Source: a virus (taxonomy: Duplodnaviria > Caudoviricetes). From it: DNA of 27,589 nucleotides. Shown piece by piece: positions 2,209 to 22,409 of this stretch. The translations under genes and the position numbers were made by a program. Position 1 is the stretch's first letter. The number at the start of each line of letters is the position of its first letter. Where the stretch lies: positions 1-27,589 of IMG/VR virus record IMGVR_UViG_3300048080_000580; one strand, 5' to 3'. The notes under the pieces are model-generated. The model was not told where the DNA came from. It worked only from the letters and a program-made list of their open reading frames with translations, and did no database searches.

Positions 2209-2231
2209 GATCAAGCACAAGGGAGAAAAGA
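2209..2231 (+). repeat. intergenic motif half-site GATCAAGCACAAGGGAGAAAAGA
   Basis: 23-nt exact match to 10912-10934. Confidence 0.95.
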
Positions 2232-2250
2232 TGGTGTAGACTGGGCCTTC

Positions 2251-2598
2251 ATGGAGTGGCAAGACTGGCTGCAGGATGTCCGGGCAATCGCCGTGGAGCA
2301 TAAGTCACGGCATCTCCCCGACATTGACCGTGTGATCCAGATGCTTGAGGATGGAGTCGTGCCCTCTCCGAGGGTCCTAGCTCGATTCAGGGGGCTGTTC
2401 GCCACTACCCCTGTGTGCGCCAGGCTCGAGTCAGACGGGGCTTGCGCGTGGCTGCGGCCTCATGGGGCGGCCCACGGGCTAATCGTCCCGCCAGCGGGCC
2501 AACGTGCGATCTGCCCGTTCTTGCGGAAGACTGAAGAAGGCCGTAACAACTGGGATTGGTGCGCTGGGTACCGGAGGGAACTTCATGCAGACGATTGA
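2251..2598 (+). CDS. hypothetical protein with four Cys (possible metal binding)
   Basis: 115 aa; first gene of the plus-strand block, overlapping the start of the next gene. Confidence 0.6.
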   Translation: MEWQDWLQDVRAIAVEHKSRHLPDIDRVIQMLEDGVVPSPRVLARFRGLFATTPVCARLESDGACAWLRPHGAAHGLIVPPAGQRAICPFLRKTEEGRNNWDWCAGYRRELHADD

Positions 2599-2872
2599 GT
2601 TGAAGGTCTACGAGCTCGACGAGAGGGGGAAGCCAATTGACCAGGCTCCAGTCCTCTTGAAGGAGTTCGTCTGTGTCGACCTGGATGACGGACGACATCA
2701 AGCCAAGCGAGTCATCCTAGAGAAGGGCTTTATCCTGCGGTCCCTGAGCTTCGTCAGTTTGGAGAAGAAGTCACCCACGAAGCAGCAGACTGCACTTGTT
2801 GCGTACGTCGCCAAGTTGCCGCCAACGACTTCGGGGATTCCCGGCTGGCGATACAAAGCGCCCCCGCGCTAA
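2585..2872 (+). CDS. hypothetical protein, 95 aa (MQTIELKVYE...)
   Basis: ATG at 2585 with GGAGGG RBS at 2572-2577; preferred over the track start at 2504. Confidence 0.7.
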   Translation: MQTIELKVYELDERGKPIDQAPVLLKEFVCVDLDDGRHQAKRVILEKGFILRSLSFVSLEKKSPTKQQTALVAYVAKLPPTTSGIPGWRYKAPPR

Positions 2873-2878
2873 CCGCCG

Positions 2879-3955
2879 TTGTCCACTCCAGCCAACATCA
2901 GCTCGAGGATCCAGACCTACGCAGATGCGTTTGGTAACTTGGACCTGCGTGTCGGGGTGGGTGCTCCGGGAGATCCTATCCTCGTTCGGGGGGAAGCGAA
3001 GTCTCCTGGCGCCGCGTACAACTCCGGCAACCCGAGCTTCCTCAACGCCGTCATCACCGGGATCGCTGGAGAGATCGACGCGCAGATCTCTTCCTTCTCG
3101 GGCCAAGCCTACGCCGCGGGCACGTCGTCCACGCGTGGTGGAACCCTCTCGTTCGCGAACGCCGGCAACGTGTCGTTCGGCCTGAACGGGAGCACCATCA
3201 CGGCGACCGCTACTGTACCGGCCAGCGTGCAGTTCTACGCGGCCGGCACGACGTCAGGATCCGGGGGCACACTCAGCTTCTCCAACGCCAACGGGTTCAC
3301 GTTCGGGCTGAATGGGAGCACCATCACGTTGAGTGCTTCACTGACGGCGGCGGCTCCAGTCCTCTCGTTCTACCAAAACATGCAGGCAGCACAGTTCGCG
3401 TCCTTCACGACGCCGCAAGTCAGCACCGCAATCAATCTCAGCCTGCAGAGATTCTCAGTTCCTTGGAACATGACGGCCACACTTCTTGAAATGCCGGGAG
3501 CCCTATCGGTACTGGGCAGCGCTTCCGCGGAATACTCGCTCAGTGTGGCTGTGTACACACTAGCGGGGCTCTCCGCAAGCCGAATGTCATCCGCGCAGGC
3601 GACAGCTTCTTTCGCGAGCGGTTCGAACAGCACGCTCTCGTCCGTGTACGGAGCTTGGACGAACACGCAGTGGCGATCGGTAGCGATCGGCTCTTGGAAC
3701 TTTACGCCGGGGGAGTATATGTTCGCGTTCATGATGAGCGCGACCGGGTCCTCGGCGATTGCCTTCTCGTGGCATGGCATGAGTAGTCTATCAGTCCGCG
3801 GATTCATGGGGGGAGAGCGCAGCTTCTACTGGGCGAATGGCGTCTACACTTCTGCAACAGGTGCGTTCCCTGACGTACTGCAGTTGAGTCAGTTGATCCA
3901 GACAGGAAGCACACCCAATAGACAGGTCTTCTTTCAAATGCACGGAACCTACTAG
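2879..3955 (+). CDS. Ser/Thr/Gly/Ala-rich protein with internal tandem repeat; putative virion fibre/decoration protein
   Basis: 358 aa, very few charged residues, two copies of YAAGT..GGTLSF.NA....FGLNGSTIT, beta-rich C-terminal domain. Confidence 0.7.
   Translation: MSTPANISSRIQTYADAFGNLDLRVGVGAPGDPILVRGEAKSPGAAYNSGNPSFLNAVITGIAGEIDAQISSFSGQAYAAGTSSTRGGTLSFANAGNVSFGLNGSTITATATVPASVQFYAAGTTSGSGGTLSFSNANGFTFGLNGSTITLSASLTAAAPVLSFYQNMQAAQFASFTTPQVSTAINLSLQRFSVPWNMTATLLEMPGALSVLGSASAEYSLSVAVYTLAGLSASRMSSAQATASFASGSNSTLSSVYGAWTNTQWRSVAIGSWNFTPGEYMFAFMMSATGSSAIAFSWHGMSSLSVRGFMGGERSFYWANGVYTSATGAFPDVLQLSQLIQTGSTPNRQVFFQMHGTY
3110..3328 (+). repeat. coding tandem repeat, 126-nt (42-aa) period
   Basis: 3110-3202 vs 3236-3328; 23 of 31 aligned residues identical. 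Confidence 0.9.
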
Positions 3956-3971
3956 GTTCGAGGTCAAGGGC

Positions 3972-4730
3972 ATGAAAAGTCGAAGAGCTAAGAAGGGCAT
4001 GATGCCGGCGCACAAGGCCGCAGCATCTCCGGGCCGCGGATTCGAGATGGTGAAGGTCCTCCCAGGCTCGACCTACAAGGACAACTCGACAGTAATCGTG
4101 ATCCCATCGAGGGGTATGGTTCATCACCGCTTCGTCCAAGCAAAGAACGGCTTGATCGCTCCCATGAACGCCAAGCGTGGGGAACTTTGGGCGGTAGGGG
4201 ACGAGGTCGGGGTGGCGTACGACCGGACCATCAAATTCATCCTCGCGCACGATGAGCTCAAGACCTGGAAGTACGTCATGACGATCGAGGACGACAACAT
4301 CGTTCCTCCCGATGCCCACATCCGTCTTCTTGAGTCCATCGAGTGGGGCAAATTCGACGCCGTGAGCGGGCTCTACTTCACCAAGGGCGACGTGAATATG
4401 CCCATGGCCTACGGCGATCCCGAGGAGTACAAGAGGACCGGCACGCTCGACTTCCGCCCGCGGGACGTACGCGAGGCCCTGGCTGCTGGGCAGATAATGC
4501 CGGTCAACGGCATCGCCATGGGTTGTGCTCTGTGGCGAATGGACTTGTTTCGCGAGCTCCCACCACCTTGGTTCGTCACGATGTCGGACTACTTCCCAGG
4601 GAAGGGCGCCGTCGGATCGACGCAGGACCTGTGGTTTTGTCGAAAGGCGAAGGAGGCCGGGAAGACGCTTGCAGTGGATCTCAGAATTAAAGTTGGACAT
4701 TTGGATGTGTCCAGTGGGATTGTATTTTAA
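3972..4730 (+). CDS. GT-A fold (family 2-like) glycosyltransferase
   Basis: VIVIPSRG strand, YVMTIEDDNIVPPDA (DxD-like), AMGCALWR, QDLWFCRKAKEAG and terminal VGH, all typical of phage GT2-like enzymes. Confidence 0.8.
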   Translation: MKSRRAKKGMMPAHKAAASPGRGFEMVKVLPGSTYKDNSTVIVIPSRGMVHHRFVQAKNGLIAPMNAKRGELWAVGDEVGVAYDRTIKFILAHDELKTWKYVMTIEDDNIVPPDAHIRLLESIEWGKFDAVSGLYFTKGDVNMPMAYGDPEEYKRTGTLDFRPRDVREALAAGQIMPVNGIAMGCALWRMDLFRELPPPWFVTMSDYFPGKGAVGSTQDLWFCRKAKEAGKTLAVDLRIKVGHLDVSSGIVF

Positions 4731-4748
4731 CCAAGTTCAAGGAAAATT

Positions 4749-5450
4749 GTGTTGAACAAGAAGAAGGTGGAACTGGCCTTGGCGAAGTCCCGTGCGGAAC
4801 TCAGACTAGATCTGGCGTGCGGGAGGTCCTGCAAAGAAGGCTTCGAGGGCGTAGATCGGAAGATCCTCACGGGTGGACCGATCCTCGATGCACAGGGGAA
4901 GCCGACCGGGCGAAACCACGCAGACGTGGTACACGCCGTCGACCTCTTCAAGTTTCCCTTTCCCTGGGCCGACAGTTCGGTCGAGGAAATTTTCTGTTCT
5001 CATTTCATAGAGCACATCCCAGCGCGAGAGGTAGAGGCTCGGGATTTGCACGACCCTCGCAAGGAGGATCAGAGTGTTCTGATCGGGAAGGACATGCTCG
5101 TCGCATTTTTCGACGAGTGCTATCGTATCCTGAAGCCAGACGCGTTCATGACGATCGTATGCCCGTCGGCCAGGAACGAGCGCGCCTTCCAAGATCCGAC
5201 TCACCGGCGTTTCATCGTGCAGAACACCTTCGCGTATTTCGACGCCACAGCCCGTCAGGCCATGGGGATTGAACACTATCTGGGCGGGTGCGACTTCTTG
5301 TCTCAGGTCGGTTGGTACCATAGCGACGACATCACGCTCCTCAGCGAAGAAGCCAGGCAACGGCGGTTTGGTGCGGAGTGGAATGTGATCTGGGACTACA
5401 ACGTCAAGGCCAAAGCCTGTAAACCGAGCAGGGTGGTGAGCGTGAAGTAG
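4749..5450 (+). CDS. class I SAM-dependent methyltransferase (Methyltransf_11-like)
   Basis: LDLACG motif I, FPWADSSVEEIFCSHFIEHI, ECYRILKP, FQDPTH. Confidence 0.85.
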   Translation: MLNKKKVELALAKSRAELRLDLACGRSCKEGFEGVDRKILTGGPILDAQGKPTGRNHADVVHAVDLFKFPFPWADSSVEEIFCSHFIEHIPAREVEARDLHDPRKEDQSVLIGKDMLVAFFDECYRILKPDAFMTIVCPSARNERAFQDPTHRRFIVQNTFAYFDATARQAMGIEHYLGGCDFLSQVGWYHSDDITLLSEEARQRRFGAEWNVIWDYNVKAKACKPSRVVSVK

Positions 5451-5456
5451 CTATTG

Positions 5457-5495
5457 TTCCTTGTGCTTGATCAACTGTTGATCAAGCACAAGGAA
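5457..5495. repeat. dyad of the intergenic motif: TTCCTTGTGCTTGATC-AACTGTT-GATCAAGCACAAGGAA
   Basis: Perfect 19-bp inverted repeat around a single T at 5476, between convergent genes. Confidence 0.95.
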
Positions 5496-5507
5496 ATAAA
5501 GCCCGTG

Positions 5508-7325
5508 CTACGGGACGGGCGTCGTGATCGTGTAGGTCACGTTGACGCAGTAGACTCGTACGTCAAGCGCACCCGCGCCAGAGTTGCTTGCTTGTAGATC
5601 TACCACGAACGACCGGGCGTCTCGATCCAACCCGATTGAGCCTGAGAAGATGGACGTGGACACGATGGCAGCGGTGCCGACTGTGGATGAGGCCGTGCCA
5701 ACGGCGGTTCTCGTATTGCTGGTGCCGTTTGCTTCCAGCCACGCTCCATAGAAGAGCGTGTCATCGGTGTCGCCAGACCACACTATGGAGATGCCAGTGA
5801 TCGTAGCGCCGTCGGGAACACGGTCGATCGGGAAACTGGCTGTTCCACCCTTCACCCCCGCGCCTAGGGCGGAGATAGTGCGGATGTTGTGGCGTGTAGC
5901 GCCATCCGTCGTCAACGTGTTGACGACGGACCAATCAGATGCACCCGCTGCGGTGCGTTCCAAATTGGCTGCCGGTGCCCCAATTGTGTGGACCATCGTG
6001 AGGGCGGGGTCCAGGATGTACGCCTCCGAGAACACCGCGTTCCAAGTCAGCCCCGCCGACCCAATGTCCCTGGTCCCGTCTGCCTCCGGCATGATGTTGC
6101 CGGCGACGTCGACGCTCGCCGCGAAAACGTTCCATCGGTTGGTGCCCGCTCCGGTAGCTCCAAGGTCACGCGTCGAACCGCCCGTGAGAAGGTTCGACGC
6201 CATGCCGGTGACGTTGAGCGCCGTGAGGAAGGCCGTGCCAAAGCGGGTGGTACCGTCGCCGAGGTTGTTCGACGCGGACGACGCCAGGATGTGCCCGCTG
6301 ACGGTGTCTCCGCCGCGCTGGAAACGGCCGTTGATGCCGACGAGGAGTTGGTCGAGTTGCGCCTTGACGTGGGTTGCCGTTGTAGAGACTGCACCGCCGG
6401 TGGTGTTGAGCGAGCCTGTGGTCGCGGAACTCCCGATCTTGGCGGACCCGCCGGGAACAGTGCCGCCAGCGGTCGAGCCGAGGTCGGTGAGGATCTTGTC
6501 GAGTTGCACCTCGAGCGTCGCAGCAGGGTTGGTCGTGGCGTCGGCCCAAGCTGCGCCGCCGGCGTAGTCAATCGCCGTGGCTGCGTGCTTGTCCTGCGGA
6601 GATGTGTTGGAAACGTGCCTGTTGTAGAACTCAAGGATCTTCGCGATGGCGGCTCTGGCGTCGCCCGTGCGCAGCGTTCGCGTTGGGTACGTTGACGACT
6701 CGCGAACGAGCCAGTCCTGGCGCCGGTCGGTTGCCGTGGTGCCGTCCTCGATCTCAAGAACGCCGGCGGTGTTGCGTCGTATGTCCGCGAGGAGGATGCT
6801 ACCGGTCTCGAGTGGTGGGCGTGTGGGAGATGGATCAGGAGCACCCATCGTCACCTTGAAGACGAAGCTCTCTGCGCGGAGGTAGTACACCGTGATCGAG
6901 TTCCCGTCGATCCGCGGGACGGACAAGAGGCGGTCGAATCGAATGAACAACGAGATCCAGCGCTCGTTGACGCCGCCTGGATCTGTAGAGGAACCTCCCG
7001 CAGGAGTGCCCCCCGCGCCGATCGCGGTCTCGCCGGTGACGGAGCAGTCGACCGTGAACGCGGAGCCGGTGCGGATGCGTCGTCCTGAGTTGTCGTAGCC
7101 TGTCCCAGCAGCCGCGGTGATGTTGAACGCGGATGGGTTGGTGATCGTCCACCCAGCGCGGATCCCACCGTCTATGTCAGGTGCGATCAGTACTGCCGGC
7201 TGGACCAGGCCCTGGTTGGTGTCGAGCGCGAGGTTCAGGTCTGCGAGCTCAATGGCCGCGAATGCCGAGTCAAGCTCGTCCTGAGCTACGATTTGCTTGA
7301 AGAAAAAGTCGTATAAAGTCGCCAT
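5508..7325 (-). CDS. tail fibre / receptor-binding protein
   Basis: 605 aa, last gene after the wedge gene, AGGAGG RBS. N-terminal baseplate-anchor-like region (FFFKQIVAQDELD...GTGYDNSGRRI), Gly/Thr-rich shaft with DLG...RW repeats, beta-rich C-terminal head. Confidence 0.75.
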   Translation of the reverse strand: MATLYDFFFKQIVAQDELDSAFAAIELADLNLALDTNQGLVQPAVLIAPDIDGGIRAGWTITNPSAFNITAAAGTGYDNSGRRIRTGSAFTVDCSVTGETAIGAGGTPAGGSSTDPGGVNERWISLFIRFDRLLSVPRIDGNSITVYYLRAESFVFKVTMGAPDPSPTRPPLETGSILLADIRRNTAGVLEIEDGTTATDRRQDWLVRESSTYPTRTLRTGDARAAIAKILEFYNRHVSNTSPQDKHAATAIDYAGGAAWADATTNPAATLEVQLDKILTDLGSTAGGTVPGGSAKIGSSATTGSLNTTGGAVSTTATHVKAQLDQLLVGINGRFQRGGDTVSGHILASSASNNLGDGTTRFGTAFLTALNVTGMASNLLTGGSTRDLGATGAGTNRWNVFAASVDVAGNIMPEADGTRDIGSAGLTWNAVFSEAYILDPALTMVHTIGAPAANLERTAAGASDWSVVNTLTTDGATRHNIRTISALGAGVKGGTASFPIDRVPDGATITGISIVWSGDTDDTLFYGAWLEANGTSNTRTAVGTASSTVGTAAIVSTSIFSGSIGLDRDARSFVVDLQASNSGAGALDVRVYCVNVTYTITTPVP

Positions 7326-7368
7326 GTTAGCTGTCCTCCTGCCTCGACCTGTTTAGGTAGTGTACCAC

Positions 7369-9054
7369 CTAGCCGTCCAGAACCGTAGATTCTCCAAGTG
7401 AACTTACACCAAGCTCCCAAAGCGTGGACGGAGTCGGCGGTACGCCCAGCGTGGGCTCCTTCAAAGCCACATAGTGCTCATGCGCCACCTTCATGTACTC
7501 CACGATCTCCTGGATCCAGAAGCGCTGAAGTTCCGTCAACGCGGTTGTGGAGACGACCTGGAAGGCGTACTTCAGGAACGAAGTTCCTGGCCCAAGGACC
7601 GTGTCGATCCCGAGCTCCGAAACCCCTAACATCCACGACCCAGCAGGATCGTTAAAGGGTTGGACGTCGAGTGGGATGCCGAGGAAGAAGAGTAGAGTTG
7701 CCTCCATCCCAGCCTCGGTGCCCTTGCTCTTGTAGATCTCCACCAAAACGTCGGCGAGACGGCGCTTCTCGGTCTCCGTGAGGTCGAACGAGAACGGGTT
7801 CCCGAGGTGGCGCAGCAGCGCGTCGAGGAGTTCCGCCGGCGCGAGATCGATGTCCAGCATGATGGACAGACGATCGACATCAAAACGGATCAACTGGAAC
7901 GCCTCGTCGAAACAACGGACGAGCGCCTCCATCTCATGCGCCGCGTCCTCGCGCTTGTTCAGCGCGGGGATGAGATCGTACAATCCGTACCGGGGAGGAG
8001 AAGCCCGCGGGATGGGTGGTGCGTCAAACGTAAACGTGAGGCCCTCGGCCCCATTCTCAAACAGGTCCACGACCTCCGCGACCGCGAGCGTGTAAGTCCG
8101 TTCTGGGCTGAGGTCGTCTTGTAGGTCGAGGTCGACGTAGCGACGATAGTCCTCTGACGGCGCGAGCTCGTCTACGGCAACTGCAAGGGCCTTCAACACG
8201 ATCGGAGTGAAGGCGGGCTCGACTACAGGCGCGCCCGGGGGCACGTGTGCGAGCCGGTACGGGGAGACCACTGCGATGGTGAGCAAGCTCGAGGGCTCTC
8301 CCGCGACCTCCCCGACGATGGCGACTGTGTCGGCAGAGACCACGCTCGAGATTTCGAAGTAGCCGTTGTTCACAGCTTCGTTTGCACGGGCGACGCCAAC
8401 GAACAGTCCGACGTCGTCGACCGTGAAGGTTGCACCGGGCGCCCGGATGTGGTTCGGCTCGATGAACTCGACGCCGCCAGAGACGTTCCGCAGATTGATC
8501 GCAGAGCCCACCCCAGAGGGCAAGATCGGCTCGGTGAACAAGACGCGGATGCGGCGGAAGCCCCGGACCGAGATACTCGAGACCGCTGGGACCGTGAGAT
8601 CCTCGATCTCGAACGAGTACGTCTCATCGAGTACAGAACTCCCGCTGCCAGCCGCGAGGACTCGAACCTCGATCACATCGAGAGAAGAGAACGGAGTTGC
8701 TCGGACGAGCTTGACAACGTGCTCGTCGTCAAGTAGCGCACCAGGGGACTTCTGCGAAATGAACGTGGAAGATGCGGCGTACTCTGTAGAGAAGACCGGG
8801 CCGCTCGTCGTACTGAACACGAGCGCTAGCGGCCCTCCGTTCACAGATACATAGACCTGTGTCCCCACAGCCGTGATAGAGTTCGCCCCCGTAGCAACGA
8901 TGGTGAGTCGGATCGCGGTATCGGGCGTAGCCCCCCACTGCATGTCCTCTAGGGGAGAGTCGGGTTCAGGGTCCCGGTTGATCAGCCGGAGAACCTGCGT
9001 ACTGACCTCTTGGTCGACGAGGTCGATGTAGAACGCGCCGAAAGTGGTCCGCAT
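7369..9054 (-). CDS. baseplate wedge protein, P2 gpI-like C-terminal domain with Ig-like N-terminal extension
   Basis: LDIDLAPAELLDALLRHLG...EKRRLA..LVEIYKSKGTEAG...IVEYMKVAH is the gpI/Tail_P2_I pattern; lies just before the fibre gene. Confidence 0.8.
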   Translation of the reverse strand: MRTTFGAFYIDLVDQEVSTQVLRLINRDPEPDSPLEDMQWGATPDTAIRLTIVATGANSITAVGTQVYVSVNGGPLALVFSTTSGPVFSTEYAASSTFISQKSPGALLDDEHVVKLVRATPFSSLDVIEVRVLAAGSGSSVLDETYSFEIEDLTVPAVSSISVRGFRRIRVLFTEPILPSGVGSAINLRNVSGGVEFIEPNHIRAPGATFTVDDVGLFVGVARANEAVNNGYFEISSVVSADTVAIVGEVAGEPSSLLTIAVVSPYRLAHVPPGAPVVEPAFTPIVLKALAVAVDELAPSEDYRRYVDLDLQDDLSPERTYTLAVAEVVDLFENGAEGLTFTFDAPPIPRASPPRYGLYDLIPALNKREDAAHEMEALVRCFDEAFQLIRFDVDRLSIMLDIDLAPAELLDALLRHLGNPFSFDLTETEKRRLADVLVEIYKSKGTEAGMEATLLFFLGIPLDVQPFNDPAGSWMLGVSELGIDTVLGPGTSFLKYAFQVVSTTALTELQRFWIQEIVEYMKVAHEHYVALKEPTLGVPPTPSTLWELGVSSLGESTVLDG

Positions 9055-9827
9055 TATGGCACGTCTCGCTCGTCTACAAAGGCAAACTCAAACTTGATCG
9101 AGTGCTGACTTTGTAGCTTGGACACGTGCGCGCGAATGTCGAGGCGGTCCCTGTAGCGGCCCAGTACTTCGCCCGTCTCCACCCGAAGGAGGTCCTCAAC
9201 ATAGACTCGAGCAACGAAGCGTGCCCCCAACTTGAGCACGCTCATGCCGGTGGTGGGACCTTCGTCGACCAAGTTTCGATCGAGTAGCGCCGTCGTGATT
9301 GGGGCGCCCGGAGTCGCGGGTGGGACAAGCCCGATGATTGTCGCCTTCCCGACGTTGGAGCCCATCGCCGGGTTGGTGATCTCGATTTCCTGACCCAGAT
9401 CCGCCACAGTGAAGTTTGCGCTCGGAGCTAACATCACACCGCCGACTTGACCGTAAACGTCAGGCGCTTGGATGAGGACCTCAGCCGCGCTATAGAGGAC
9501 GATGTCCTCGGGCGTACCCTGCAGTTCTCTCTGGCCTGGTGCGTCCTGCGGCTGTCGGATCCTTATCCGCGCGCCAATCAAGTCGATACCCGTGAGGTCG
9601 ATCACCTGCTCGAAGCTGAACTTCTCCCCGATAGCCAACTTGAAACTGGGAGACTGGAGTAGATCGCTGCCGATGCAAAGGACGTAGGCACCGTCCGGGA
9701 CGGGGAAGTTCTGTGGTTGGATGCGCCCCTGCGTAACTCCGAGGTCATACGCCCACGGGCTTGTATTCCCGCCGGAGGGCTCGAAGCTGCCCTCTCTCCA
9801 AACGTATGTCTCGAAGTCGAACGGCAT
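9054..9827 (-). CDS. hypothetical baseplate-region structural protein
   Basis: 257 aa; TAATG coupling to the wedge gene. Confidence 0.7.
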   Translation of the reverse strand: MPFDFETYVWREGSFEPSGGNTSPWAYDLGVTQGRIQPQNFPVPDGAYVLCIGSDLLQSPSFKLAIGEKFSFEQVIDLTGIDLIGARIRIRQPQDAPGQRELQGTPEDIVLYSAAEVLIQAPDVYGQVGGVMLAPSANFTVADLGQEIEITNPAMGSNVGKATIIGLVPPATPGAPITTALLDRNLVDEGPTTGMSVLKLGARFVARVYVEDLLRVETGEVLGRYRDRLDIRAHVSKLQSQHSIKFEFAFVDERDVP

Positions 9828-9830
9828 AGT

Positions 9831-10769
9831 TTAGTTCGTTGGCGTAGTGACCCCGTTACCGGGCACGCTGTACATGGCGTCCGTAGATCCAATGACGTAA
9901 CGCAGCTTATCATTCGACACGTCGTGTAGGTCGTGCGAGTAAGAGACTTGTCGCAGGATTCGACTTGTACCGCGAACCGTAGTGTTCACCGCGCCGAACC
10001 ACAATACCTCCACGCTGGGGGCATTCCCGGTTCTGGCGTCCGACGTGTCCATCAACTCGAACGCGTCCTGCCCCGTGTTGATGTCGAAGTACTGGATCAA
10101 GGTCAAACCGGACGTACCACGCACCTGAACTGTCACATCATCGACGTTGTAGCCCACCGCGATGGCGGCAGTCTGCAACGTGAGCAACTGCAGAGGTACT
10201 CCACTGGTCCACGCCCCGAAACCGGGCTTGGCATCCCCGGACTTCACGTCCTCGAGCCAGTCGAAGAGGCAGATGAACGCGAGTGCGTTGACCCCTGTGC
10301 CGGCGTACGCAAGAAACGCCGGGGACGAACTGTCACAGAGGTACTGCGCGACGAAGTTCGCGGTAGGGATGTTGCAGTGCCCCAAGGTGCGATCGGCTAC
10401 CGTCACCTGATCCGTTGCGGTCGGCGGCGCGGTGGCTGATGGAGACCCACCGGTGAACTGTGCTGCGCGCGACCAGAGGCAACCAAGAAACTCCTCCGCA
10501 CCAGAGGTGTTTCGCATCGACATGATGAGCTCAATGCCAGTCAACGTGTGACGGAGACGCACCCACGCGCCTTCTCCAACGATGGAAGCAGCCGTCACCC
10601 ACAGGTCCACACCAACGTTGTCGAACGCGCCGGTGTTGCCTGTGCCGGTGCCCTGGACCGTCCATCCACGGGCCTTGAGAAGGGTCTTCAGCGTGAAGAG
10701 GTGCAGTCGGGACCTCTGAAGGTCGTTAGCCCCGGTGATCGACACGTTGACATTGTGGTAGAACGCCAT
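9831..10769 (-). CDS. hypothetical virion protein (possible accessory fibre/appendage)
   Basis: 312 aa, GAGGAGG RBS; LKTLLKARGWTVQG N-terminal pattern is common in phage virion proteins. Confidence 0.7.
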   Translation of the reverse strand: MAFYHNVNVSITGANDLQRSRLHLFTLKTLLKARGWTVQGTGTGNTGAFDNVGVDLWVTAASIVGEGAWVRLRHTLTGIELIMSMRNTSGAEEFLGCLWSRAAQFTGGSPSATAPPTATDQVTVADRTLGHCNIPTANFVAQYLCDSSSPAFLAYAGTGVNALAFICLFDWLEDVKSGDAKPGFGAWTSGVPLQLLTLQTAAIAVGYNVDDVTVQVRGTSGLTLIQYFDINTGQDAFELMDTSDARTGNAPSVEVLWFGAVNTTVRGTSRILRQVSYSHDLHDVSNDKLRYVIGSTDAMYSVPGNGVTTPTN

Positions 10770-10874
10770 TTACGCCTCCTCGAACGAGAGGATCATCAGT
10801 TCCTCGACCCAACCCGGGAGAAGGAACTCTCCGAAGTCTACGTCAAGATCCGGGTCGAAAGTAAAAGCTGCCAC
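10770..10874 (-). CDS. small acidic ORF, 34 aa (MAAFTFDPDLDVDFGEFLLPGWVEELMILSFEEA), below the track cut-off
   Basis: GTG at 10874; TAA at 10772-10770 abuts the next ATG at 10769; fills the intergenic gap exactly; third positions mostly G/C. Confidence 0.5.
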   Translation of the reverse strand: MAAFTFDPDLDVDFGEFLLPGWVEELMILSFEEA

Positions 10875-10881
10875 GGGATAA

Positions 10882-10934
10882 TCTTTCTTCCCTTGTGCTT
10901 GATCAGTAGTCGATCAAGCACAAGGGAGAAAAGA
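10882..10934. repeat. dyad of the intergenic motif: TCCCTTGTGCTTGATC-AGTAGTC-GATCAAGCACAAGGGA
   Basis: Perfect 16-bp arms at 10889-10904 and 10912-10927, 7-nt spacer, imperfect pyrimidine/purine extensions. Confidence 0.95.
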
Positions 10935-10939
10935 GACTA

Positions 10940-11635: not shown

Positions 11636-11668
11636 AACTCAATCCTTTCGAAGCCTTACGCTACATCA

Positions 11669-12613: not shown

Positions 12614-14163
12614 TATGGCACCACCGTCAGCACAGTCGCGCCAGTGTCAGCGTTGAGGATCGTCATCGTACCCAACTTCGGGAACTTCAGAGAGCCGATC
12701 AGGACAGACGATCGCAGGCTATTCAACAAGAGCCCGATGGGCCCTGCGTCGACTTCGCGCACGCCAACCGTGTCCCGCACCACGTTGAATATGTCGGACC
12801 ACGGCATGGTCGCAGTGATCGTACCCTCTGTGTCCTTCAGGTTTGCACCGAAATCCACCGCGGCGTTGGCGTTGCCTTCGAAGTCCAGTACAGCAAAGTG
12901 GTCCTTGAGGTTGTCTACGATCGTTTGGGCCACCGTCGCCGGCGTGGCACCAGTCGAGAAGTAGACGCGGGTAGACACAGCGATGGTCGTGTACTCCGCC
13001 GCGCGGACCTCGAGGGTGAACGTCAGCGTATGCGGGAACGTGACGGTCACCATCTCCTCGACTTCGTCAAGTAGCGCAGACGAGGGAGTTGCCCCAAGCG
13101 TCGCTCCCGAGGCAAGATGCACGCCCTTCGCGATGACGTAGAGGATGCCAGTGTTCTCCTGGATGGCCGAGCTCTCGTTGCTTGTGGCCATTAGAGATCT
13201 GGCTACGCCGGCCACCTTTAGTGCGTTGATCTCGAAGTCGTCCTTGGACACAGTCCGCGTGGTGGTGCGCAGGGTCTGTGGTCCCAGAGACCGGGCCTGG
13301 GCCAAGCTCATGCGGTCATCACCACCGCTGGACTTATCCGCGTTGGTGACCCGGAGAGGCGAAACCTGCCCAGCCCCATTCAATATCACTCCCTCAATGA
13401 TCGTGATCTGGCCCTCGTCGACGTTCCCTAGAGCGCCTCCGCCGGTCTTGTAGTCGACCGTGATCGTGCCTTGCGGAATCTCGCCGTTGGCCCCATTGCC
13501 GAAGCGCACACGCCCCTGGTCGAACTGGTCCACCAGGATGACGAAGGTCCGGTCCGAGGGGCCGCTGCCGAGGAAGCTCAGCACCTCAGAGTAAGCCCCG
13601 TTGGCCGCCGAGGGCTCAGCCGAGTCATCTAGGTACGGCTTCTTGCTGAGCGTGAACTCTTGGTTGGGGGCACCACTCGACTGGAAGACGTCCTGTTCAG
13701 CTGTGGCCTGCTCCGCTGCGATGATTACCGAGGATTGCCCGATGCCTATTGTCCCATCCGCAATTGTCCGGAACGTGACAGGGTTCGTCGGATCCTTTGA
13801 GCGGCATCGAGTACCAGCCGGGATCGTGACAACCACAGCAGCTACCGAGGGCAGTGAGAACGTGAGGTCGACCGTAGCTGCCACAGCGCCGGCGAGCTTG
13901 AAGTTGATGAGGCGTCCAAGACGGATAGCTGCGATGCGTTGGTTCATCGTCGGCCAGTACGCATTGAGCGCGGAACTGTCGACGTAGTAGTTCAGGACGT
14001 CGCCCACAAAGGCGAAGAGCTCGAGCAGGATGTTCCCGAAGTTGGCGGTGTTGAAGTCCGTCCACGTCGGGAAGACCGAGCGCGCGAGACCAATCAGGCG
14101 TAGGCGGAGACTCGCGAAATCGCGGTCCGTCAGGTCCACGTTCGGTTGCGGAAGAATTGGCAT
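12613..14163 (-). CDS. baseplate J / gp47-like wedge protein
   Basis: DLTDRDFASLR...WTDFNTANFGNILLELFAFVGDVLNYY, VRFGNGANGEIP, GGALGNV, RTVSKDDFE. Confidence 0.92.
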   Translation of the reverse strand: MPILPQPNVDLTDRDFASLRLRLIGLARSVFPTWTDFNTANFGNILLELFAFVGDVLNYYVDSSALNAYWPTMNQRIAAIRLGRLINFKLAGAVAATVDLTFSLPSVAAVVVTIPAGTRCRSKDPTNPVTFRTIADGTIGIGQSSVIIAAEQATAEQDVFQSSGAPNQEFTLSKKPYLDDSAEPSAANGAYSEVLSFLGSGPSDRTFVILVDQFDQGRVRFGNGANGEIPQGTITVDYKTGGGALGNVDEGQITIIEGVILNGAGQVSPLRVTNADKSSGGDDRMSLAQARSLGPQTLRTTTRTVSKDDFEINALKVAGVARSLMATSNESSAIQENTGILYVIAKGVHLASGATLGATPSSALLDEVEEMVTVTFPHTLTFTLEVRAAEYTTIAVSTRVYFSTGATPATVAQTIVDNLKDHFAVLDFEGNANAAVDFGANLKDTEGTITATMPWSDIFNVVRDTVGVREVDAGPIGLLLNSLRSSVLIGSLKFPKLGTMTILNADTGATVLTVVP

Positions 14164-14906
14164 CAGTTTTCTCCCGCGATTCGCTGGGCGTGTACGCTGA
14201 GTATGCGCCTTGCGATGATAAACTTACGCTTCAACACTGGGCGATGCCTCTTGTACAAAAACAGCACTACTGCCGAAACGTTGCTCCAAGAGGACCATTG
14301 CGCGTAGGCTGTATTGTTCCTATGGCGAATTGTTCCTGCTTTAACACCAACACAGGCTTCAATACACTGGACTACCCAAGCAACGACGTCTGGGTGCCCG
14401 CAGAATGCCACAAGTGGGCTCCTACCATCTTCGCCCAAATACACGCAACCGTCCCCATCAAAAAGTCCGCGCAGGAAGTCGCGGAGGAATTCTTTGGGAA
14501 CTTGAGGCATGACCGGATGGCGAGACTTGCTTGGGGCAACCCCCAATTTCAATAGATCCAACACCATGCTACGGGAGTAGACCACCCAGCGGACCCTTGG
14601 ACCACCTTTTACCACATGTCCATTCAACATGTGGTCGGTCGAGGCAGTTAGATCGGTGACTCTACCTCCAATAGTAGCTTGGAGGTCAAGCAAGTGTTGT
14701 TTGTCTTTACTCGCCAAGTTTATCGTCACAGCCCAATACGGCTTCAATCGTATGTTGCCGTCGGCATATAGGAAGCCCAACCAGTAAGCTGTTGCGGGGC
14801 TAGATACAGCCGAGAAGTACGCTTCTTTCACGTAGGTTTTACGTGGACGCCCTCGAGTAGAAAGTGCGGCTGTGTAGTCTACGCTAGGTTGCGGGAGGAT
14901 GGGCAT
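14163..14906 (-). mobile_element. free-standing double-motif LAGLIDADG homing endonuclease gene
   Basis: AYWLGFLYADG and DFLRGLFDGDG motifs, basic protein, visibly more AT-rich than its flanks. No intein termini. TGATG overlap with baseplate J. Confidence 0.88.
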
Positions 14907-14907
14907 A

Positions 14908-15333
14908 CTAAGCCTCGATCACCTGGACCACGGGGCCTAGGATAGCCCCGTTCCTTGGGTTGTTCGTCGCTACTACGGACCACACCACCTTGACATCGAG
15001 GCGCGTATCCTTCTTCTCCACCGAGACCTCGTTCAGCGTGGCACGAGGTTCGTACTCCCGGATCGACTCCGTCACTTGGAGCTTGGCCAAGGCCATGTTG
15101 CCGTCGTCCATATTCTTGAGCCGAACGGACTCGAGCAGGACCCCGAAGCGCGGGCGCCATCGGAGCTCACCTGGAATCGTGCCAACGATCTGAGACACCG
15201 ATGACGCTACAGCGGCCTCTCCTCCGCCAGTCTGGAAGTCCGAGCCTGTGCGGCGCAAAGGGCGGACCAACCCAAAGCCAAGGAAGCTCTTGGATCCATT
15301 CAGCGAAAGGCCGCGCGGTGTGGAATCGCTCAC
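14908..15333 (-). CDS. GPW/gp25-family baseplate wedge / sheath initiator
   Basis: SVSQIVGTIPGELRWRPRFG...SIREYEPRA signature. Confidence 0.9.
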   Translation of the reverse strand: MSDSTPRGLSLNGSKSFLGFGLVRPLRRTGSDFQTGGGEAAVASSVSQIVGTIPGELRWRPRFGVLLESVRLKNMDDGNMALAKLQVTESIREYEPRATLNEVSVEKKDTRLDVKVVWSVVATNNPRNGAILGPVVQVIEA

Positions 15334-15343
15334 CTATACTCCA

Positions 15344-15353
15344 TTGTGCTTGA
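15344..15353 (-). repeat. degenerate half-site TCAAGCACAA of the intergenic motif
   Basis: Exact 10-nt core in the 31-nt gap upstream of gp25, running into its GGAG RBS. Confidence 0.7.
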
Positions 15354-15364
15354 ACAGCCTCAAA

Positions 15365-16093
15365 CTATACAGGGATCGCATCGCGTATGTCCGAAATGGT
15401 GTCGACGAACCCCTCGAGTACCGCAATACCGGCTGCCGGGTCGGTAAACTCGCCGATCGCAGGCATCTCGGGCAATCCTGCGAGACTCGCCAAGAGTGTA
15501 ATGATCTCAAGGATCTTGCCGATAGGCCCCATGCTGGCGGACATGTTCGCAGTCTGGATGTCCACATTCTCTTGAAGACACTGCGCGATGTCCCGGAGCC
15601 GATCACTGTCCAAGACCTCGGCTCTCGCTGCAGCATCAGTTGCCCGTTGTGCGTCCTCGGCGAGTGCGCCGAGTTGTCCCACCACGCCTTGCAGGAACAG
15701 GATCACGACGTCGATCAAGTTCACGATCATTAGGGGAATCGACAACTGCGGAATGAGTGCAGCAACCGCAGCCAACTTTGGGGCGAGCTCCTGGATGGCC
15801 TCGAGGATCGGTTCCGGCGAGAGTTGAAGAATGGCATCTGGAATGGACGACCCCAACTTCGCGAGGGCCATGATCGCATCCAGCAACTTGAAGAACGGGG
15901 CGAGCCCCGACATCACCGGGCCCGCTTGATCGATGAGGCTCTTCGCAACGCGAAGAGGTTGCGTGGCCTGCTCCGGGGGGGCGGCGCCCTCGAGCGTAAT
16001 GCCCCCAGGGAACGTGACAGAGATCGGCGGAATCGCAGGCGCCAGGTGAGCACACAGGTCCGCTGGGAACGGTGGTGTAGGAACGAAGACCAT
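15365..16093 (-). CDS. hypothetical alpha-helical, hydrophobic/acidic protein between spike and gp25
   Basis: 242 aa, tightly packed in the operon; Leu/Ile/Ala/Pro-rich. Confidence 0.75.
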   Translation of the reverse strand: MVFVPTPPFPADLCAHLAPAIPPISVTFPGGITLEGAAPPEQATQPLRVAKSLIDQAGPVMSGLAPFFKLLDAIMALAKLGSSIPDAILQLSPEPILEAIQELAPKLAAVAALIPQLSIPLMIVNLIDVVILFLQGVVGQLGALAEDAQRATDAAARAEVLDSDRLRDIAQCLQENVDIQTANMSASMGPIGKILEIITLLASLAGLPEMPAIGEFTDPAAGIAVLEGFVDTISDIRDAIPV

Positions 16094-16097
16094 GGGC

Positions 16098-16694
16098 TTA
16101 CGCCACCCTCTTCGTGATGCCGTCTACTTGAACCATCAGAGAACCCTTGACCAAGATGTTGGGGGCGTCCAAGAGGATCGTTCCATCCGCCTTGAGAACT
16201 ATCGCGTCCGAACCTTTGATCCCGATACCCATCCCATCTGTGGCATTTCCTACGATTTGGATGCTGTCCCCTGTGATGCGGTTAGCTATGACAAGAGCCT
16301 CGCGACCTTCTTTGTCGGTGAACGAGATCTGGAAGTTGTGCGTCGTGATCACGACCACTTGATCCGCGTCGGCGGCGTTGGTCGCGCCATCGGGACCGCT
16401 GTGGCGTTCCCAAGGTCCTGGCATGTACAGAGGAGAATCCAAGTCTCCATTCAAGAAACACACGATGATCGATGATCCTGCCTGTGGAACCCAGGAGAAG
16501 CCGAGTCCGGCTTCGCGCTGTCCGGCGCCAGGAAAACCAATGGGAAGAATCCAACCAGTAGAAGGCTCGATCAACCCAGGGATGATCGCCTTCACGCGAC
16601 CGCGCTTTTCTGGGTCCTGGTTGTCCAAGACCTCTCCCTTGTACATGCCTTGCAGCAGGCTCAGGCCACTGTCGATGTCCTCACGAAGGCCCAT
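16098..16694 (-). CDS. baseplate spike (gpV / gp5 N-terminal OB-fold)
   Basis: YKGEVLDNQDPEKRGRVKAIIPG...GW...VPQAGS.IIVCFLNGDLDSP signature, followed by a short beta-helix. Confidence 0.9.
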   Translation of the reverse strand: MGLREDIDSGLSLLQGMYKGEVLDNQDPEKRGRVKAIIPGLIEPSTGWILPIGFPGAGQREAGLGFSWVPQAGSSIIVCFLNGDLDSPLYMPGPWERHSGPDGATNAADADQVVVITTHNFQISFTDKEGREALVIANRITGDSIQIVGNATDGMGIGIKGSDAIVLKADGTILLDAPNILVKGSLMVQVDGITKRVA

Positions 16695-17914
16695 TAGATC
16701 TTCCTTGCCTTCTGCGGTGGGAACTCGACGAGCGTTGCAGCACGGGTCTCAGCCGCTCCAGTGGGGCCGGGAGCCACGAAGCCGACGAGAGCTCGATCTG
16801 CGCCAGGACCAAATCCCTTTCGGCGGAGGAGGATCACCGTCACGTAACCGTTCTCATCGATCGTGTGTGTAACCTCTTTGATGAACCAGGGGCCGTCCAC
16901 GAGGGGCCCGAAGTTGATGAGGTTCACCCCCATGCGCACAAAGAGCCTGGGATTTCCTACCACCGTGAGCTTGATCTTCCAAGTAGCAAACGCAGCTTGT
17001 TCCATACGCCTGATTGCGGCTTTGGACGCGGACCTGGACGGAGGTGCCAGAAACTCCTCGAAGCGTTCGTCTAGGGTACGGACAACTTCTGCGTCTCGTC
17101 GTCCGGCAAACTCCACTAACGTGGTAGCTCCTGTGACCGGGGGACCGTAGGCAGATGCCCCCTCGAAACCAAAGAGACCGCGTGGAGTAGACGTCGTGGG
17201 AACGGGCAGCGTAAAGTCCCCTTCGACTTCCCACGAGAGGACATCTGGCCCCTCGAAGAAAGTGATCTGTTCGAATAGAGGACCAGTACCTTCCGGACCA
17301 AAGTGAAACCCTCGATCCGAAATCGAGAACGCGAAGTTGCTCTCGAGGTTCGCGAGGCGATGGAGGAAGTGAGCTTCGGATTCTCCTACCTTCATCGCGA
17401 CCATCTCGAGGATCTCACCGGTATCTTCGATGTAGACGTTGTCCCCCTCGAACCCGTTGCGCTTAGCGACTTCTCGGACGACGTCGCTGACCTTCATGTT
17501 CAAGAAGACCCGCGTACCCGTACGAGCCAAGATGGTGTTGAGGTCCACGATCTTACCTCGTGCCTCGTACGTAACCGTGGCGCTTCCACCAGACGCGGCA
17601 GGCACCATGTGACCGCCCGACTTGGAGACCAGGCCCTTGATCTTTCGGACCACTAGAGTACGGACGGGCGACTCAAGGGTCGGGTAACCCCAGGTCAACC
17701 GGAGCGAAACCCCCAGCGCGATCCGGTTCAACTGGGTGAGCTCTCCGTCAGGGTTATCCAAGACCAGGGTTACCTTCTCGTCATTCTTCTTGAGAGATTC
17801 GGTGTACTCGAATTTGACGAGACGCTCCCACAACGGGATCCCGGCCAAGGCCGAATCGGCTGTAGTTGCGATCCGAACTCGTGGGTTACCGAGGTCTGTT
17901 CCCTGAAGAGACAC
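16694..17914 (-). CDS. baseplate hub / late control gpD-like protein
   Basis: VTLVLDNPDG, LTWGY, KVSDVVREVAKRNG, ESEAHFLHRLA, GNPRL...GPWFIKEVTHTIDENGYVT. Confidence 0.88.
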   Translation of the reverse strand: MSLQGTDLGNPRVRIATTADSALAGIPLWERLVKFEYTESLKKNDEKVTLVLDNPDGELTQLNRIALGVSLRLTWGYPTLESPVRTLVVRKIKGLVSKSGGHMVPAASGGSATVTYEARGKIVDLNTILARTGTRVFLNMKVSDVVREVAKRNGFEGDNVYIEDTGEILEMVAMKVGESEAHFLHRLANLESNFAFSISDRGFHFGPEGTGPLFEQITFFEGPDVLSWEVEGDFTLPVPTTSTPRGLFGFEGASAYGPPVTGATTLVEFAGRRDAEVVRTLDERFEEFLAPPSRSASKAAIRRMEQAAFATWKIKLTVVGNPRLFVRMGVNLINFGPLVDGPWFIKEVTHTIDENGYVTVILLRRKGFGPGADRALVGFVAPGPTGAAETRAATLVEFPPQKARKI

Positions 17915-17932
17915 TGATTACAAGCTCCAATC

Positions 17933-17954
17933 GATCAAGCACAAGGGAAAGAAG
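17933..17954 (+). repeat. half-site GATCAAGCACAAGGGAAAGAAG
   Basis: In the 40-nt gap between the LysM and hub genes, directly after the stop codon. Confidence 0.95.
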
Positions 17955-18302
17955 CTACGCCAGCCGTGGTGCCCGCGCCTGGATTCGTGCAAGGACGTCA
18001 CTGTTCACGTAGTCCTGAGACGGTATTACCATGATCGTACCCCCCTCGAGGGCTTCTGTCGGGTCCTGGATCGGCTCGGGCTGGAACTGCCCGACGATCC
18101 AGTAGAGCAGCGCCGAGTCCGCCAGACCGCCGAAGAACCGGTCAGCAAGGAGCTCGAGGGTCTCACCCTCCTTCACCATGTGAAGGACGTTGTCGAAGCG
18201 CGGTTGGTACGGAACGGGGTCCTCCTGCTGGATGAACGTCCGTCCCTCGGCGTCTTTGGCGACTCCGGCGTTGGCGTATCGAGAGTTCCCTCGTGCGGAC
18301 AT
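17955..18302 (-). CDS. LysM-like / tail protein X (gp53-like) baseplate protein
   Basis: SRY...HMVKEGETLELLADRFFG...LYWIV...IQDP...IMVIPS. Confidence 0.85.
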   Translation of the reverse strand: MSARGNSRYANAGVAKDAEGRTFIQQEDPVPYQPRFDNVLHMVKEGETLELLADRFFGGLADSALLYWIVGQFQPEPIQDPTEALEGGTIMVIPSQDYVNSDVLARIQARAPRLA

Positions 18303-18895: not shown

Positions 18896-18898
18896 GGC

Positions 18899-21367: not shown

Positions 21368-21552
21368 TAGCCCCTCTTCTCGTCATCCTCCTGCCAAGAA
21401 AGCCGGAGTTCCCGCAGGATCCAGTCCCTCCATTGTACGTCCATTTCGAGGAGTTCGCCCAGCCCGATCAGCGGCTTCGCCTTCAAGTTCGAGCCCTGCA
21501 AGATCAACATCCAGACCATCTTCCGCCAGGACTCCTCGTCCTGGTATGCCAT
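21367..21552 (-). CDS. tail assembly chaperone C-terminal part (gpT / gpE'-like), probably expressed by -1 frameshift from the upstream gene
   Basis: MAYQDEESW...GELLEMDVQWRDWILREL; lies in the -1 frame of 21570..22331, is open through the slippery site and is coupled (TAGTG) to the tape measure. Confidence 0.65.
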   Translation of the reverse strand: MAYQDEESWRKMVWMLILQGSNLKAKPLIGLGELLEMDVQWRDWILRELRLSWQEDDEKRG

Positions 21553-21569
21553 CAGGTTCAACCAGGGGG

Positions 21570-22331
21570 CTACCCGTCTGAGTTCTTCTCCTGAACCGTC
21601 TCCCTCCCCTGCCGGAACATCTTCCGGTTCGAGAAGAACGTTGCCCCTAAAGGGAGGATCACCATCTGCTGGAAGCCGCAAGCCTGGCAGACGATCTCGA
21701 ACTGCGTATTGTAGCCACAATCCACGGACTCGAGCTCGTCGCGCAACTGGTCGCCGACGGCCCCATCCAGGTTCTTGAGCCACTCCTTGATCTTGATCGG
21801 GTCCTTGACTACACCCTCGACCTCGAGGATGCGCCGGACAAAGCGCGTGTTGACGTTGTCCGCCACGCTCTTGCCCTTGTAGGTCGCGGCGAAGCGGTCG
21901 TCCTCCCCGCGGAGGAGACGGTACTTGACGGTCTTGCCGTCGCACAACGTCACGAACGGCGCGTCCTCACGCACCTTCCGGCGCGACTCCGGATCGAGCG
22001 GCGTCACGTCCAGGTCGTTGAGGTTCAGAGACCACTCGATCGCTTCCTTGCACGAGGAGTTATCGCACTGCGTACGGAAGTCGTAGTGGGGTCCGTAGCT
22101 CAGGATGCGGGCCTGCATGATGATGTACAGGCGATCGCCGGCGAGGACCTTGTCCCAGTCCAGTGGAGCCTTGTACGGTCCCTGATCCAGGACCTCCACG
22201 AAGGAAGCCTTGCAGATCTCGGTGAGCACAGTGCCCGCGCGATGGTACTTCTGGTCGGTGTAGATTTCCTCGTCGCGGACCTTCCAGCTTCGGATGTTGC
22301 CGCGGAGCCCGGACGGGCAGGTGATTTCCAC
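21570..22331 (-). CDS. tail assembly chaperone (gpG-like; resembles T4 gp26-type proteins) with two Cys pairs
   Basis: Between tube and tape measure; ITCPSG, GDRLYIIMQARILSYG, CDNSSC and CQACG, late FF motif; AAGGAG RBS. Confidence 0.75.
   Translation of the reverse strand: MEITCPSGLRGNIRSWKVRDEEIYTDQKYHRAGTVLTEICKASFVEVLDQGPYKAPLDWDKVLAGDRLYIIMQARILSYGPHYDFRTQCDNSSCKEAIEWSLNLNDLDVTPLDPESRRKVREDAPFVTLCDGKTVKYRLLRGEDDRFAATYKGKSVADNVNTRFVRRILEVEGVVKDPIKIKEWLKNLDGAVGDQLRDELESVDCGYNTQFEIVCQACGFQQMVILPLGATFFSNRKMFRQGRETVQEKNSDG
21648..21654 (-). other. putative -1 ribosomal frameshift heptamer C CCT TTA
   Basis: X XXY YYZ pattern in the correct phase (codons 227-228); the -1 frame is open to 21367. 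Confidence 0.6.
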
Positions 22332-22369
22332 TTTCTGTCTCCTTGAACTGTGGGTTCCCCCACTTTATC

Positions 22370-22395
22370 TCCTTGTGCTTGATCAAGCACAAGGA
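22370..22395. repeat. perfect 26-bp palindrome TCCTTGTGCTTGATCAAGCACAAGGA
   Basis: Two arms of the intergenic motif share one central GATC; lies just after the tube stop codon. Confidence 0.97.
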
Positions 22396-22409
22396 AGAAA
22401 AGAGTGCTG

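Follow-up and report, generated by a model that had tools for sequence, protein, structure and literature searches.

The window analyzed in this work, i.e., the whole stretch of 27,589 nucleotides of the viral record IMGVR_UViG_3300048080_000580 (Duplodnaviria; Caudoviricetes), harbors at its gene junctions several copies of an asymmetric unit of 18 bases, YCAARCACAAGGAAGAAG, hereafter referred to as the arm. The same unit is spread along the whole genome of the closest relative retrieved (contig G012), where it maintains the positions occupied in the window, is found in both orientations and is spaced more evenly than random sites; no copy was detected in the host-side genomes searched. On the basis of the analyses reported below, the arms most likely do not represent a switch shuffling tail modules; they would rather form a network similar to operators or stoperators. 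More precisely, we hold, with slightly better than even confidence, that the arm is a dispersed asymmetric DNA signal located at gene junctions and putatively bound by one phage protein, which would damp or time transcription throughout the genome. Among the explanations listed in an earlier examination of the letters of the window (the sequence-only reading), that of operator sites for a phage regulator is the one favored by the evidence, the binding itself remaining putative.

In the 27.6-kb window, the minus strand encodes a contractile-tail operon and the plus strand a single accessory block (2251-5450). The nine copies of a 10-mer that the sequence-only reading had reported at six intergenic loci were recovered exactly, with the same positions and strands: TCAAGCACAA occurs nine times, against 0.06 copies expected (100 shuffles: mean 0.06, maximum 1). 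The extension of eight copies to a longer motif also proved right: the exact 14-mer GATCAAGCACAAGG is present in eight of the nine copies, the exception being the copy at 15342, which has two mismatches, and positions 2209-2231 and 10912-10934 are identical across 23 nt, as had been noticed. None of the six loci falls within a called gene; the space outside genes accounts for just 2.3% of the 10-mer positions of the window (genes were called with a codon-usage script of our own and compared with open reading frame (ORF) lists and family hits). The conserved unit is longer than both the 10-mer and the 14-mer, covering about 18 bp with its purine tail included. At the paired copies, a pyrimidine run precedes the stem and an A-rich run follows it, in agreement with the previous description. 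The strict alternation of orientations does exist in the window, but three of its eight switches are forced, being internal to the three paired sites.

The closest sheath protein with a long genomic context (P0003, 59% identity) is encoded by G012, a 137-kb contig with an estimated completeness of 84% and a median protein identity of 51% to the window. A position weight matrix (PWM) describing the arm gives 53 matches along the whole of this contig versus 0.6 in its Markov-shuffled copies; the matrix was trained on 41 G012 seeds, which match by construction, the window arms being untrained. The same matrix recovers eight of the nine window arms, and only 0-2 matches in each of the other 19 clade contigs (none in 15 of them). 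Among the 21 contigs examined in full (the window and 20 others), the motif is common to the window and G012 only, and it is all but absent from 163 sheath- or J-related loci (no more than one exact 10-mer each). Two further assemblies, G013 and L295, belong to the same phage as G012 (100% identical and collinear), so that a single independent motif-bearing relative is available, and no further close relative was found beyond it. An exact 14-mer search of viral contigs (7 of 64 parts) yielded at least 123 loci, which, being nearly all single matches, were treated as chance; a palindrome-pattern scan returned two loci, each with a single site, for which tblastn showed no relationship to the window; and none of the 119 loci from a pair-pattern scan of metagenomes (23 of 64 parts) had two or more PWM matches at a score of 16 or more. 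No other multi-copy holder was found among 26 viral and 119 metagenome loci, no RNA was listed as carrying the motif, and cultured phages gave distant sheath matches only (25-31%). Nothing on the same architecture was found for this clade in the openly accessible literature.

Each of the six window loci has its equivalent in G012, where the orthologous junction carries an arm oriented in the same way. Nine of the ten site-bearing gene ends of the window also carry a site in G012, versus two of the 42 other ends (p = 1.4e-7; adjacent ends are not independent). Two window arms do not have a full counterpart: the sense arm 10891 is missing and the arm 22371 is degenerate in G012, where, as a consequence, the order of orientations at these junctions does not alternate. 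Nor is alternation significant over the whole contig (30 runs versus 25.3 expected, p = 0.10; p = 0.09 when the 41 single copies are taken by themselves), and the two phages share one order of core tail genes. A motif with 53 copies distributed over an entire genome does not support the proposal that its arms divide the virion region into functional modules; the motif is real and conserved, and the modules are for the most part an impression given by a small sample of a signal that extends genome-wide.

Only seven of the 53 G012 copies lie deep in genes, versus a background of 81% (p = 4e-26), the remaining 46 being not deep; these seven weaker in-gene copies still outnumber the 0-2 total matches of each control contig. 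With respect to transcription, 24 copies are sense, 22 are antisense and seven fall in gaps between convergent or divergent genes (the sense count includes one in-gene copy whose overlapping ORF was judged false). In the sense copies at junctions, the purine tail occupies the position of the ribosome-binding site (RBS), mostly 6-13 nt before the start codon, and in the antisense ones, it lies next to the upstream stop, the distances being similar; the median distance between the end of the arm and the start or stop that it faces is 9-10 nt (17 and 13 hand-picked junction copies). These mirror-image distances may be explained by the tightness of phage junctions. The purine tail is equally conserved in the antisense copies, where a role as RBS is impossible. 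Single copies account for 41 of the 53 sites, and lone arms do not pair with their own flanks more than expected, local pairing reaching p < 0.05 in 3/64 tests for G012 and in 0/6 for the window. The spacing of the copies along G012 has a coefficient of variation of 0.65, versus 0.87 for uniform placement (p = 0.015) and 0.99 for a junction null (p = 0.0013), and that of the window loci is 0.25 (p = 0.013); the evenness test was chosen after the positions were seen, and the two sets are not independent. The possibility that the arm is a -35 element was discarded: at the corresponding spacing out of the head end, the only one scanned, TAnnnT occurs in 1/53 copies (background 16/450).

As for the way in which such a network might work, the arm would be recognized in its double-stranded form, given that the whole 18-mer, purine tail included, is kept whichever strand it lies on and that a local partner for pairing is lacking for most copies. 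The bound protein might block promoters or RBS regions where arms overlap them (2209 and 15342), and behind stop codons it might act as a roadblock to read-through. The phage would then put the arms to a second use, those pointing at a start codon as RBSs and those that come together in pairs (5459/5480, 10891/10912, and 22371/22381) as mRNA hairpins; in the past, the arms probably also served as short homology for the inversion of the block 2251-5450 (see below).

Four proteins of G012 with helix-turn-helix (HTH) or similar domains are candidate binders: P0143, an orphan ParB, a Cys-rich sigma-4 HTH protein and a LuxR HTH protein. P0143 (233 aa), in which three winged-helix repeats of the Xis/MerR type can be recognized by eye, with matches to Pfam HTH_17 and TIGR01764 below the cut-off, is put first because tandem domains suit a long asymmetric site; its candidacy derives from this architecture. 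An arm pair lies directly behind its gene. The family is rare (three further full-length relatives) and solved structures are uninformative. The gene of the sigma-4 HTH protein contains a motif copy inside its own reading frame, and another copy lies 16 nt upstream of the LuxR HTH gene. The ParB protein displays an unusual recognition helix, and its gene is located just upstream of the sigma-4 HTH gene. The Cys-rich protein encoded at 2251 in the window was also considered and rejected as a binder; it matches no family, and two relatives (G018 and G019, fragments of 32-37 kb) carry it without a visible motif family.

Several observations weigh against the existence of a single binding protein acting on transcription. 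The window carries the gene of none of the candidate binders, and homologs of the triple winged-helix protein are missing from the other 20 contigs, including G007. The stoperators described in PMC9283540 follow the direction of transcription, whereas the arms do not (24 versus 22). Neither an integrase nor a ParA was found in G012 (84% complete), so that lysogeny, which ordinarily accounts for silencing across a whole genome, is unsupported here; temporal control or organization of the chromosome during the lytic cycle would be the alternative purposes. The even spacing is not significant singly in four clade contigs with motif families of their own (G001, G006, G007, and G015; uniform p 0.08-0.39). 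Lastly, core positions depart from the consensus in 1/210 cases in antisense copies versus 10/250 in sense copies (p = 0.014), six of the ten sense deviations are A>G changes that keep G-U pairing, and the partner arm at the tube junction of G012 has lost invariant bases while the hairpin is retained. This conservation of the antisense copies and the retained hairpin suit a role in RNA.

According to such an explanation, the pyrimidine strand behind stops would be a termination, processing or stabilizing site, the purine strand would cover RBSs, and both would pair locally, distantly or in trans, tuning translation and mRNA decay. The RNA stems proposed by the sequence-only reading are indeed formed at the paired sites, which fold at -30 to -36 kcal/mol (z-scores from -3.8 to -8.2); for instance, the pair 5451-5472/5480-5502 forms an 18-bp stem with a 7-nt spacer and a z-score of about -8. 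Behind the tube gene, a strong hairpin is present in many of the 20 relatives (read by eye), and in the window and in G012 this hairpin is formed by two arms, the degenerate partner of G012 still being G-U compatible; the short median distance from the start or stop faced and the more strictly conserved antisense copies point in the same direction. An RNA role is, in our opinion, real at least for the paired arms. The lone arms, i.e., 41 of the 53 G012 copies, do not pair locally. Moreover, the stems have an A-rich run instead of the U-tract of an intrinsic terminator and no arm hairpin is listed by the terminator scan, no Rfam family is matched, in the transcribed strand of some adjacent pairs the variable position shows A-C or G-A clashes (G012 43182/43225 and 134345/134370), and in-gene copies lie on both strands. 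As a general account of the arms, the RNA-level explanation is considered rather unlikely.

Another set of ideas assigns to the arms a role in the organization of the chromosome. In its broader form, a large Myxococcota phage would tile its entire chromosome every 3-5 kb with a site loading either a ParB/Noc clamp or the triple winged-helix protein, which would coat, organize or shield the DNA; the same 18 bases would serve as RBS, hairpin and recombination hinge, and the arm would be a chromosome-organizing signal rather than a gene-by-gene operator. We regard this as distinctly doubtful. In its narrower form, which appears quite unlikely, the arms would be loading sites for an orphan CTPase clamp of the ParB/Noc type, loading every 3-5 kb and spreading to coat, position or shield the phage chromosome. 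The protein it needs does exist: G012 encodes at 104776-105642 (-) a full-length ParB of 288 aa, with ParB_N, HTH and KorB-like matches and an intact GERRLRA box, and without a ParA found on the contig. The even spacing of the sites and the weak copies inside long genes are in line with such a function. On the other hand, the sites of parS and Noc are palindromes for a dimer, whereas the arm is asymmetric: a palindromic site of 14-16 bp is not found in the arm, and the window contains a single perfect palindrome. Furthermore, none of the other 20 contigs, including the complete G001 and G006 with their own motif families, encodes a homolog of this ParB.

The recombination sites enabling inversion or exchange of cassettes, either site-specific or by short homology like the early-promoter stem-loop (PeSL) elements of T4-type phages, were another proposal of the sequence-only reading, of which one part stands: a single old inversion ends at the arms 2209 and 5459. 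The accessory block 2251-5450 (+), five genes representing the sole plus-strand block among the late genes (586 to window end), lies between these two inverted arms and is inverted with respect to all three more distant relatives that possess its genes (G007, G018, and G019), while its orientation is shared with G012. In the three relatives, the gene of the Cys-rich protein and its neighbor directly follow a fibre-like gene in the same direction; in the window and in G012, they head the reversed block, whose ends carry the two arms. If the block is flipped back, a sense arm falls between the fibre-like gene and the block genes, and the late region becomes co-directional down to 586. Judging from this comparison of gene orders, the inversion is likely the trace of an old recombination event, although the arms could equally have settled in those roomy junctions after it. 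The window and G012 also have different gene contents beside the arm 5459, arms facing inward enclose several gene blocks of G012, and this contig harbors an AAA_24/PD-(D/E)XK pair, which presumably resembles the recombination modules of the Sak4 type.

Other observations speak against a dedicated system. No tyrosine recombinase was found in G012 (84% complete), the one resolvase match being below the cut-off and on the strand opposite to the DNA polymerase gene; the gaps between paired cores vary (2, 13, and 13 nt in the window; 7, 14, 14, and 32 nt in G012) instead of keeping a fixed spacer of 6-8 nt, and most copies are single; at the four junctions located within the tail operon, the two phages do not differ in the order of their core tail genes; and the two other assemblies of the phage of G012 are fully collinear with it. 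In sequencing run X1, which is possibly the source sample of the window and whose contigs drop rare forms, single unitigs cross the loci 2209, 5459, 10891, 15342, and 17933 in the reference order. Two joints are listed for this run, at 5501 and 2225-17933. The former was discarded as a cross-match to the 22371 site, since its loose letters match the window at that site, apart from an 11-nt gap; the latter, with a side of 21 nt, is most likely another copy of the motif, a real joint being possible. An extra tail-to-tail arm pair, outside the window, was observed at the loose end of a contig of this run and is inferred to belong to the phage of the window. As a whole, recombination is an improbable function for the arms.

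Lastly, a mobile repeat of the host or the phage, like the repetitive extragenic palindromic (REP) sequences and miniature inverted-repeat transposable elements (MITEs), is highly improbable: REP sequences (with the REPINs that they form) and MITEs are abundant in host chromosomes and linked to RAYT or other Y1 transposases, whereas the 16-mer is absent from all 18 host-side genomes searched, which may not include the true host, Y1_Tnp was detected in none of five phage contigs, G012 included, the same junctions are kept at ~50% protein identity and the metagenome and viral loci mentioned above included no other multi-copy holder. The intergenic singlet and paired forms, often directly behind stops, and two tail-to-tail 'empty' pairs in G012 are in favor of this option of the sequence-only reading. 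The host is likely a myxobacterium, since the relatives of the sheath in bacterial genomes belong mostly to Myxococcota or Deltaproteobacteria.

Among known dispersed phage signals, the operators of the C1 repressor of phage P1 are asymmetric sites of about 17 bp, either single or in overlapping inverted pairs, spread over the genome and located at promoters of a plasmid prophage; the arms share their asymmetry and their single or overlapping arrangement, but lie mostly between co-directional genes, and no plasmid lifestyle was seen. The literature offers four further comparisons. The stoperators of Cluster A mycobacteriophages (L5 gp71, TipsytheTRex repressor), bound by a monomer with two DNA-binding domains (PMC9283540), are likewise long asymmetric sites, present in tens of copies genome-wide in short intergenic spaces; they follow transcription and belong to temperate phages with an immunity repressor, whereas the arms are divided into the two orientations and have an 18-bp unit with an RBS-like tail; in G012 (84% complete), several HTH genes are present and no integrase or ParA was found. 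The start-associated sequences (SAS) and extended SAS (ESAS) of Cluster K mycobacteriophages (PMC3203893) and Cluster EF Microbacterium phages (PMC7302621), to which no function is assigned, share with the arms the asymmetry, the Shine-Dalgarno core bases before the start and the conservation of positions among relatives; unlike the arms, they are reported in one orientation and near non-structural genes only, whereas half of the arms are reversed behind stops, five loci lie in the structural operon, and the RBS position holds only for the sense half of the copies.

The 17-bp repeats of Cluster O (PMC4351075) occur in more than 30 copies genome-wide, some of them in genes, without a tie to direction, in phages without integrase and in the same places in relatives, as the arms do; occasional recombination between copies is described for them, and no binder is given. 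These repeats are perfect dyads unlinked to starts, whereas the arms are asymmetric and form dyads only at some sites (41/53 being single). As for the PeSLs of T4-type phages (PMC4122927), also repeated intergenic elements and possible points of genetic exchange, they are promoter-terminator composites in hyperplastic regions, unlike the arms, which have no promoter spacing, are stemless when alone and are carried also by core tail genes; as regards indels ending at the element, the strain-level relatives of G012 do not differ from it, and one old inversion and one change of content are located at arms. On the whole, the arm is closest in its working to stoperators, SAS and Cluster O repeats, but it fails one defining feature of each, i.e., orientation bias, single orientation and dyad symmetry, respectively. 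Short genome-wide phage repeats without an assigned function are recurrent (SAS, Cluster O, and Clusters EC/EF/EG), and only stoperators have a known binder among the systems compared from the cited works. If the arms are plain operators, they add one more case to a known category, from hosts that have received little study; if their even spacing reflects function, they would be involved in the control or organization of a whole phage chromosome.

Other members of the clade harbor different motif families. In G007, 21 copies of another purine-tailed unit are found in both orientations, and palindromes of the form TGT-N12-ACA with lineage-specific cores occur in G001 (14 copies), G006 (12), and G015 (10), i.e., about one per 8-9 kb; these palindromes are closer to the Cluster O repeats (PMC4351075) than the arm is. 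The three latter contigs have an integrase (below the cut-off in G015) and a common Fis-type HTH family, weaker matches of which occur in G009 and G014; neither G012 nor the window has a member of this family among its called proteins. In the same three contigs, a sigma-4 HTH gene is divergent from the Fis-type HTH gene, in a switch-like layout. The evenness of the sites of G001, G006, G007, and G015 is jointly borderline (p = 0.056 for uniform placement and 0.019 for the junction null). A sharing of site positions across motif families was not significant (p = 0.88 for G007, 0.44 for G001, and 1.0 for G006 and G015), one junction, behind 10940-11635, having a site in the window, G012, G007, and G001. 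No such family was seen in six subclade fragments or partial genomes (G010 and G017-G021), so that this trait is not universal in the clade. Genome-specific families would fit a binder whose specificity drifts. With a common gene scaffold and no fewer than four motifs specific to single lineages, each motif accompanied by few candidate DNA-binding genes, the pairs of site and protein are directly testable.

Considering the arms of the window individually, the lone arm 2209-2231 (+) lies in the divergent gap 2139-2250 and is sense for gene 2251; it constitutes one end of the inverted accessory block, and its ortholog is G012:88183. The other end of the block is the arm 5451-5472 (-), antisense and directly behind the stop of 4749-5450, which represents the left half of a convergent pair (ortholog G012:82797) completed by the arm 5480-5502 (+), antisense behind the stop of 5508-7325 (ortholog G012:82779). 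Five of the six loci are contained in the contractile-tail operon, 5508-27589 (-), encoding sheath, tube, tape measure, hub, spike, gp25, and baseplate J. Here, the arm 10882-10904 (-), the one without a counterpart in G012, is sense and its tail is at the RBS position of a conserved acidic 34-aa ORF (10770-10874, -), found in the same place in G012 too; it pairs across a 7-nt spacer with the arm 10912-10934 (+), antisense behind the stop of 10940-11635 (ortholog G012:77413). The tail of the degenerate lone arm 15334-15355 (-), sense, is the RBS of the gp25 gene, and its ortholog, G012:73752, has the full consensus. The lone arm 17933-17954 (+) is antisense, directly behind the stop of 17955-18302 and before the baseplate hub gene (ortholog G012:71168). 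At 22363-22403, behind the tube gene, two arms in both orientations overlap on GATC and form the only perfect palindrome of the window (22370-22395, 26 bp), which corresponds to G012:66728 with its degenerate partner; its frame is TGT-N12-ACA, and the resemblance to the family of G001, G006, and G015 may be due to chance.

Some minor features were also observed. The gene 2251-2598 (+), which marks the inversion and directly follows the fibre-like gene in the three relatives, encodes an orphan protein of 115 aa with four invariant cysteines; a -10-like hexamer lies 7 nt before its ATG in both phages (window 2238-2253; G012 88159-88175), read by eye and not listed by the scan, which suggests a leaderless promoter overlapped by the arm. 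In the same block, 3972-5450 (+) contains a phrog_1574 gene and a methyltransferase-like gene, whose G012 counterparts sit about 11 kb from the accessory block. A free-standing LAGLIDADG endonuclease gene is present at 14163-14906 (-), between gp25 and baseplate J, and not in G012; its start is a near copy of the first ten codons of J, so that it looks like an insertion that duplicated the start of J. A motif-like hairpin at 22350-22363 resembles the unit of G007, and no further intergenic copy of it is present in the window. In the rest of the clade, a second family of quasi-palindromes (about 19 copies) is clustered before small early genes in G015 (45379-57058), and smaller intergenic repeat families of 4-17 copies, some of them promoter-like, occur in G004, G002, G016, G003, and G014. 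In several genome-resident relatives, a palindrome of the type CTRTTCCGA..TCGGAAYAG recurs at one and the same position, 6-7 kb upstream of the sheath gene (near 2600-3000 in L219, L228, L245, and L157, and near 3780 in L280, L282, L283, and L285), and L143 carries upstream of the sheath gene, at 4200-5000, a tandem array of imperfect repeats of about 84 nt.

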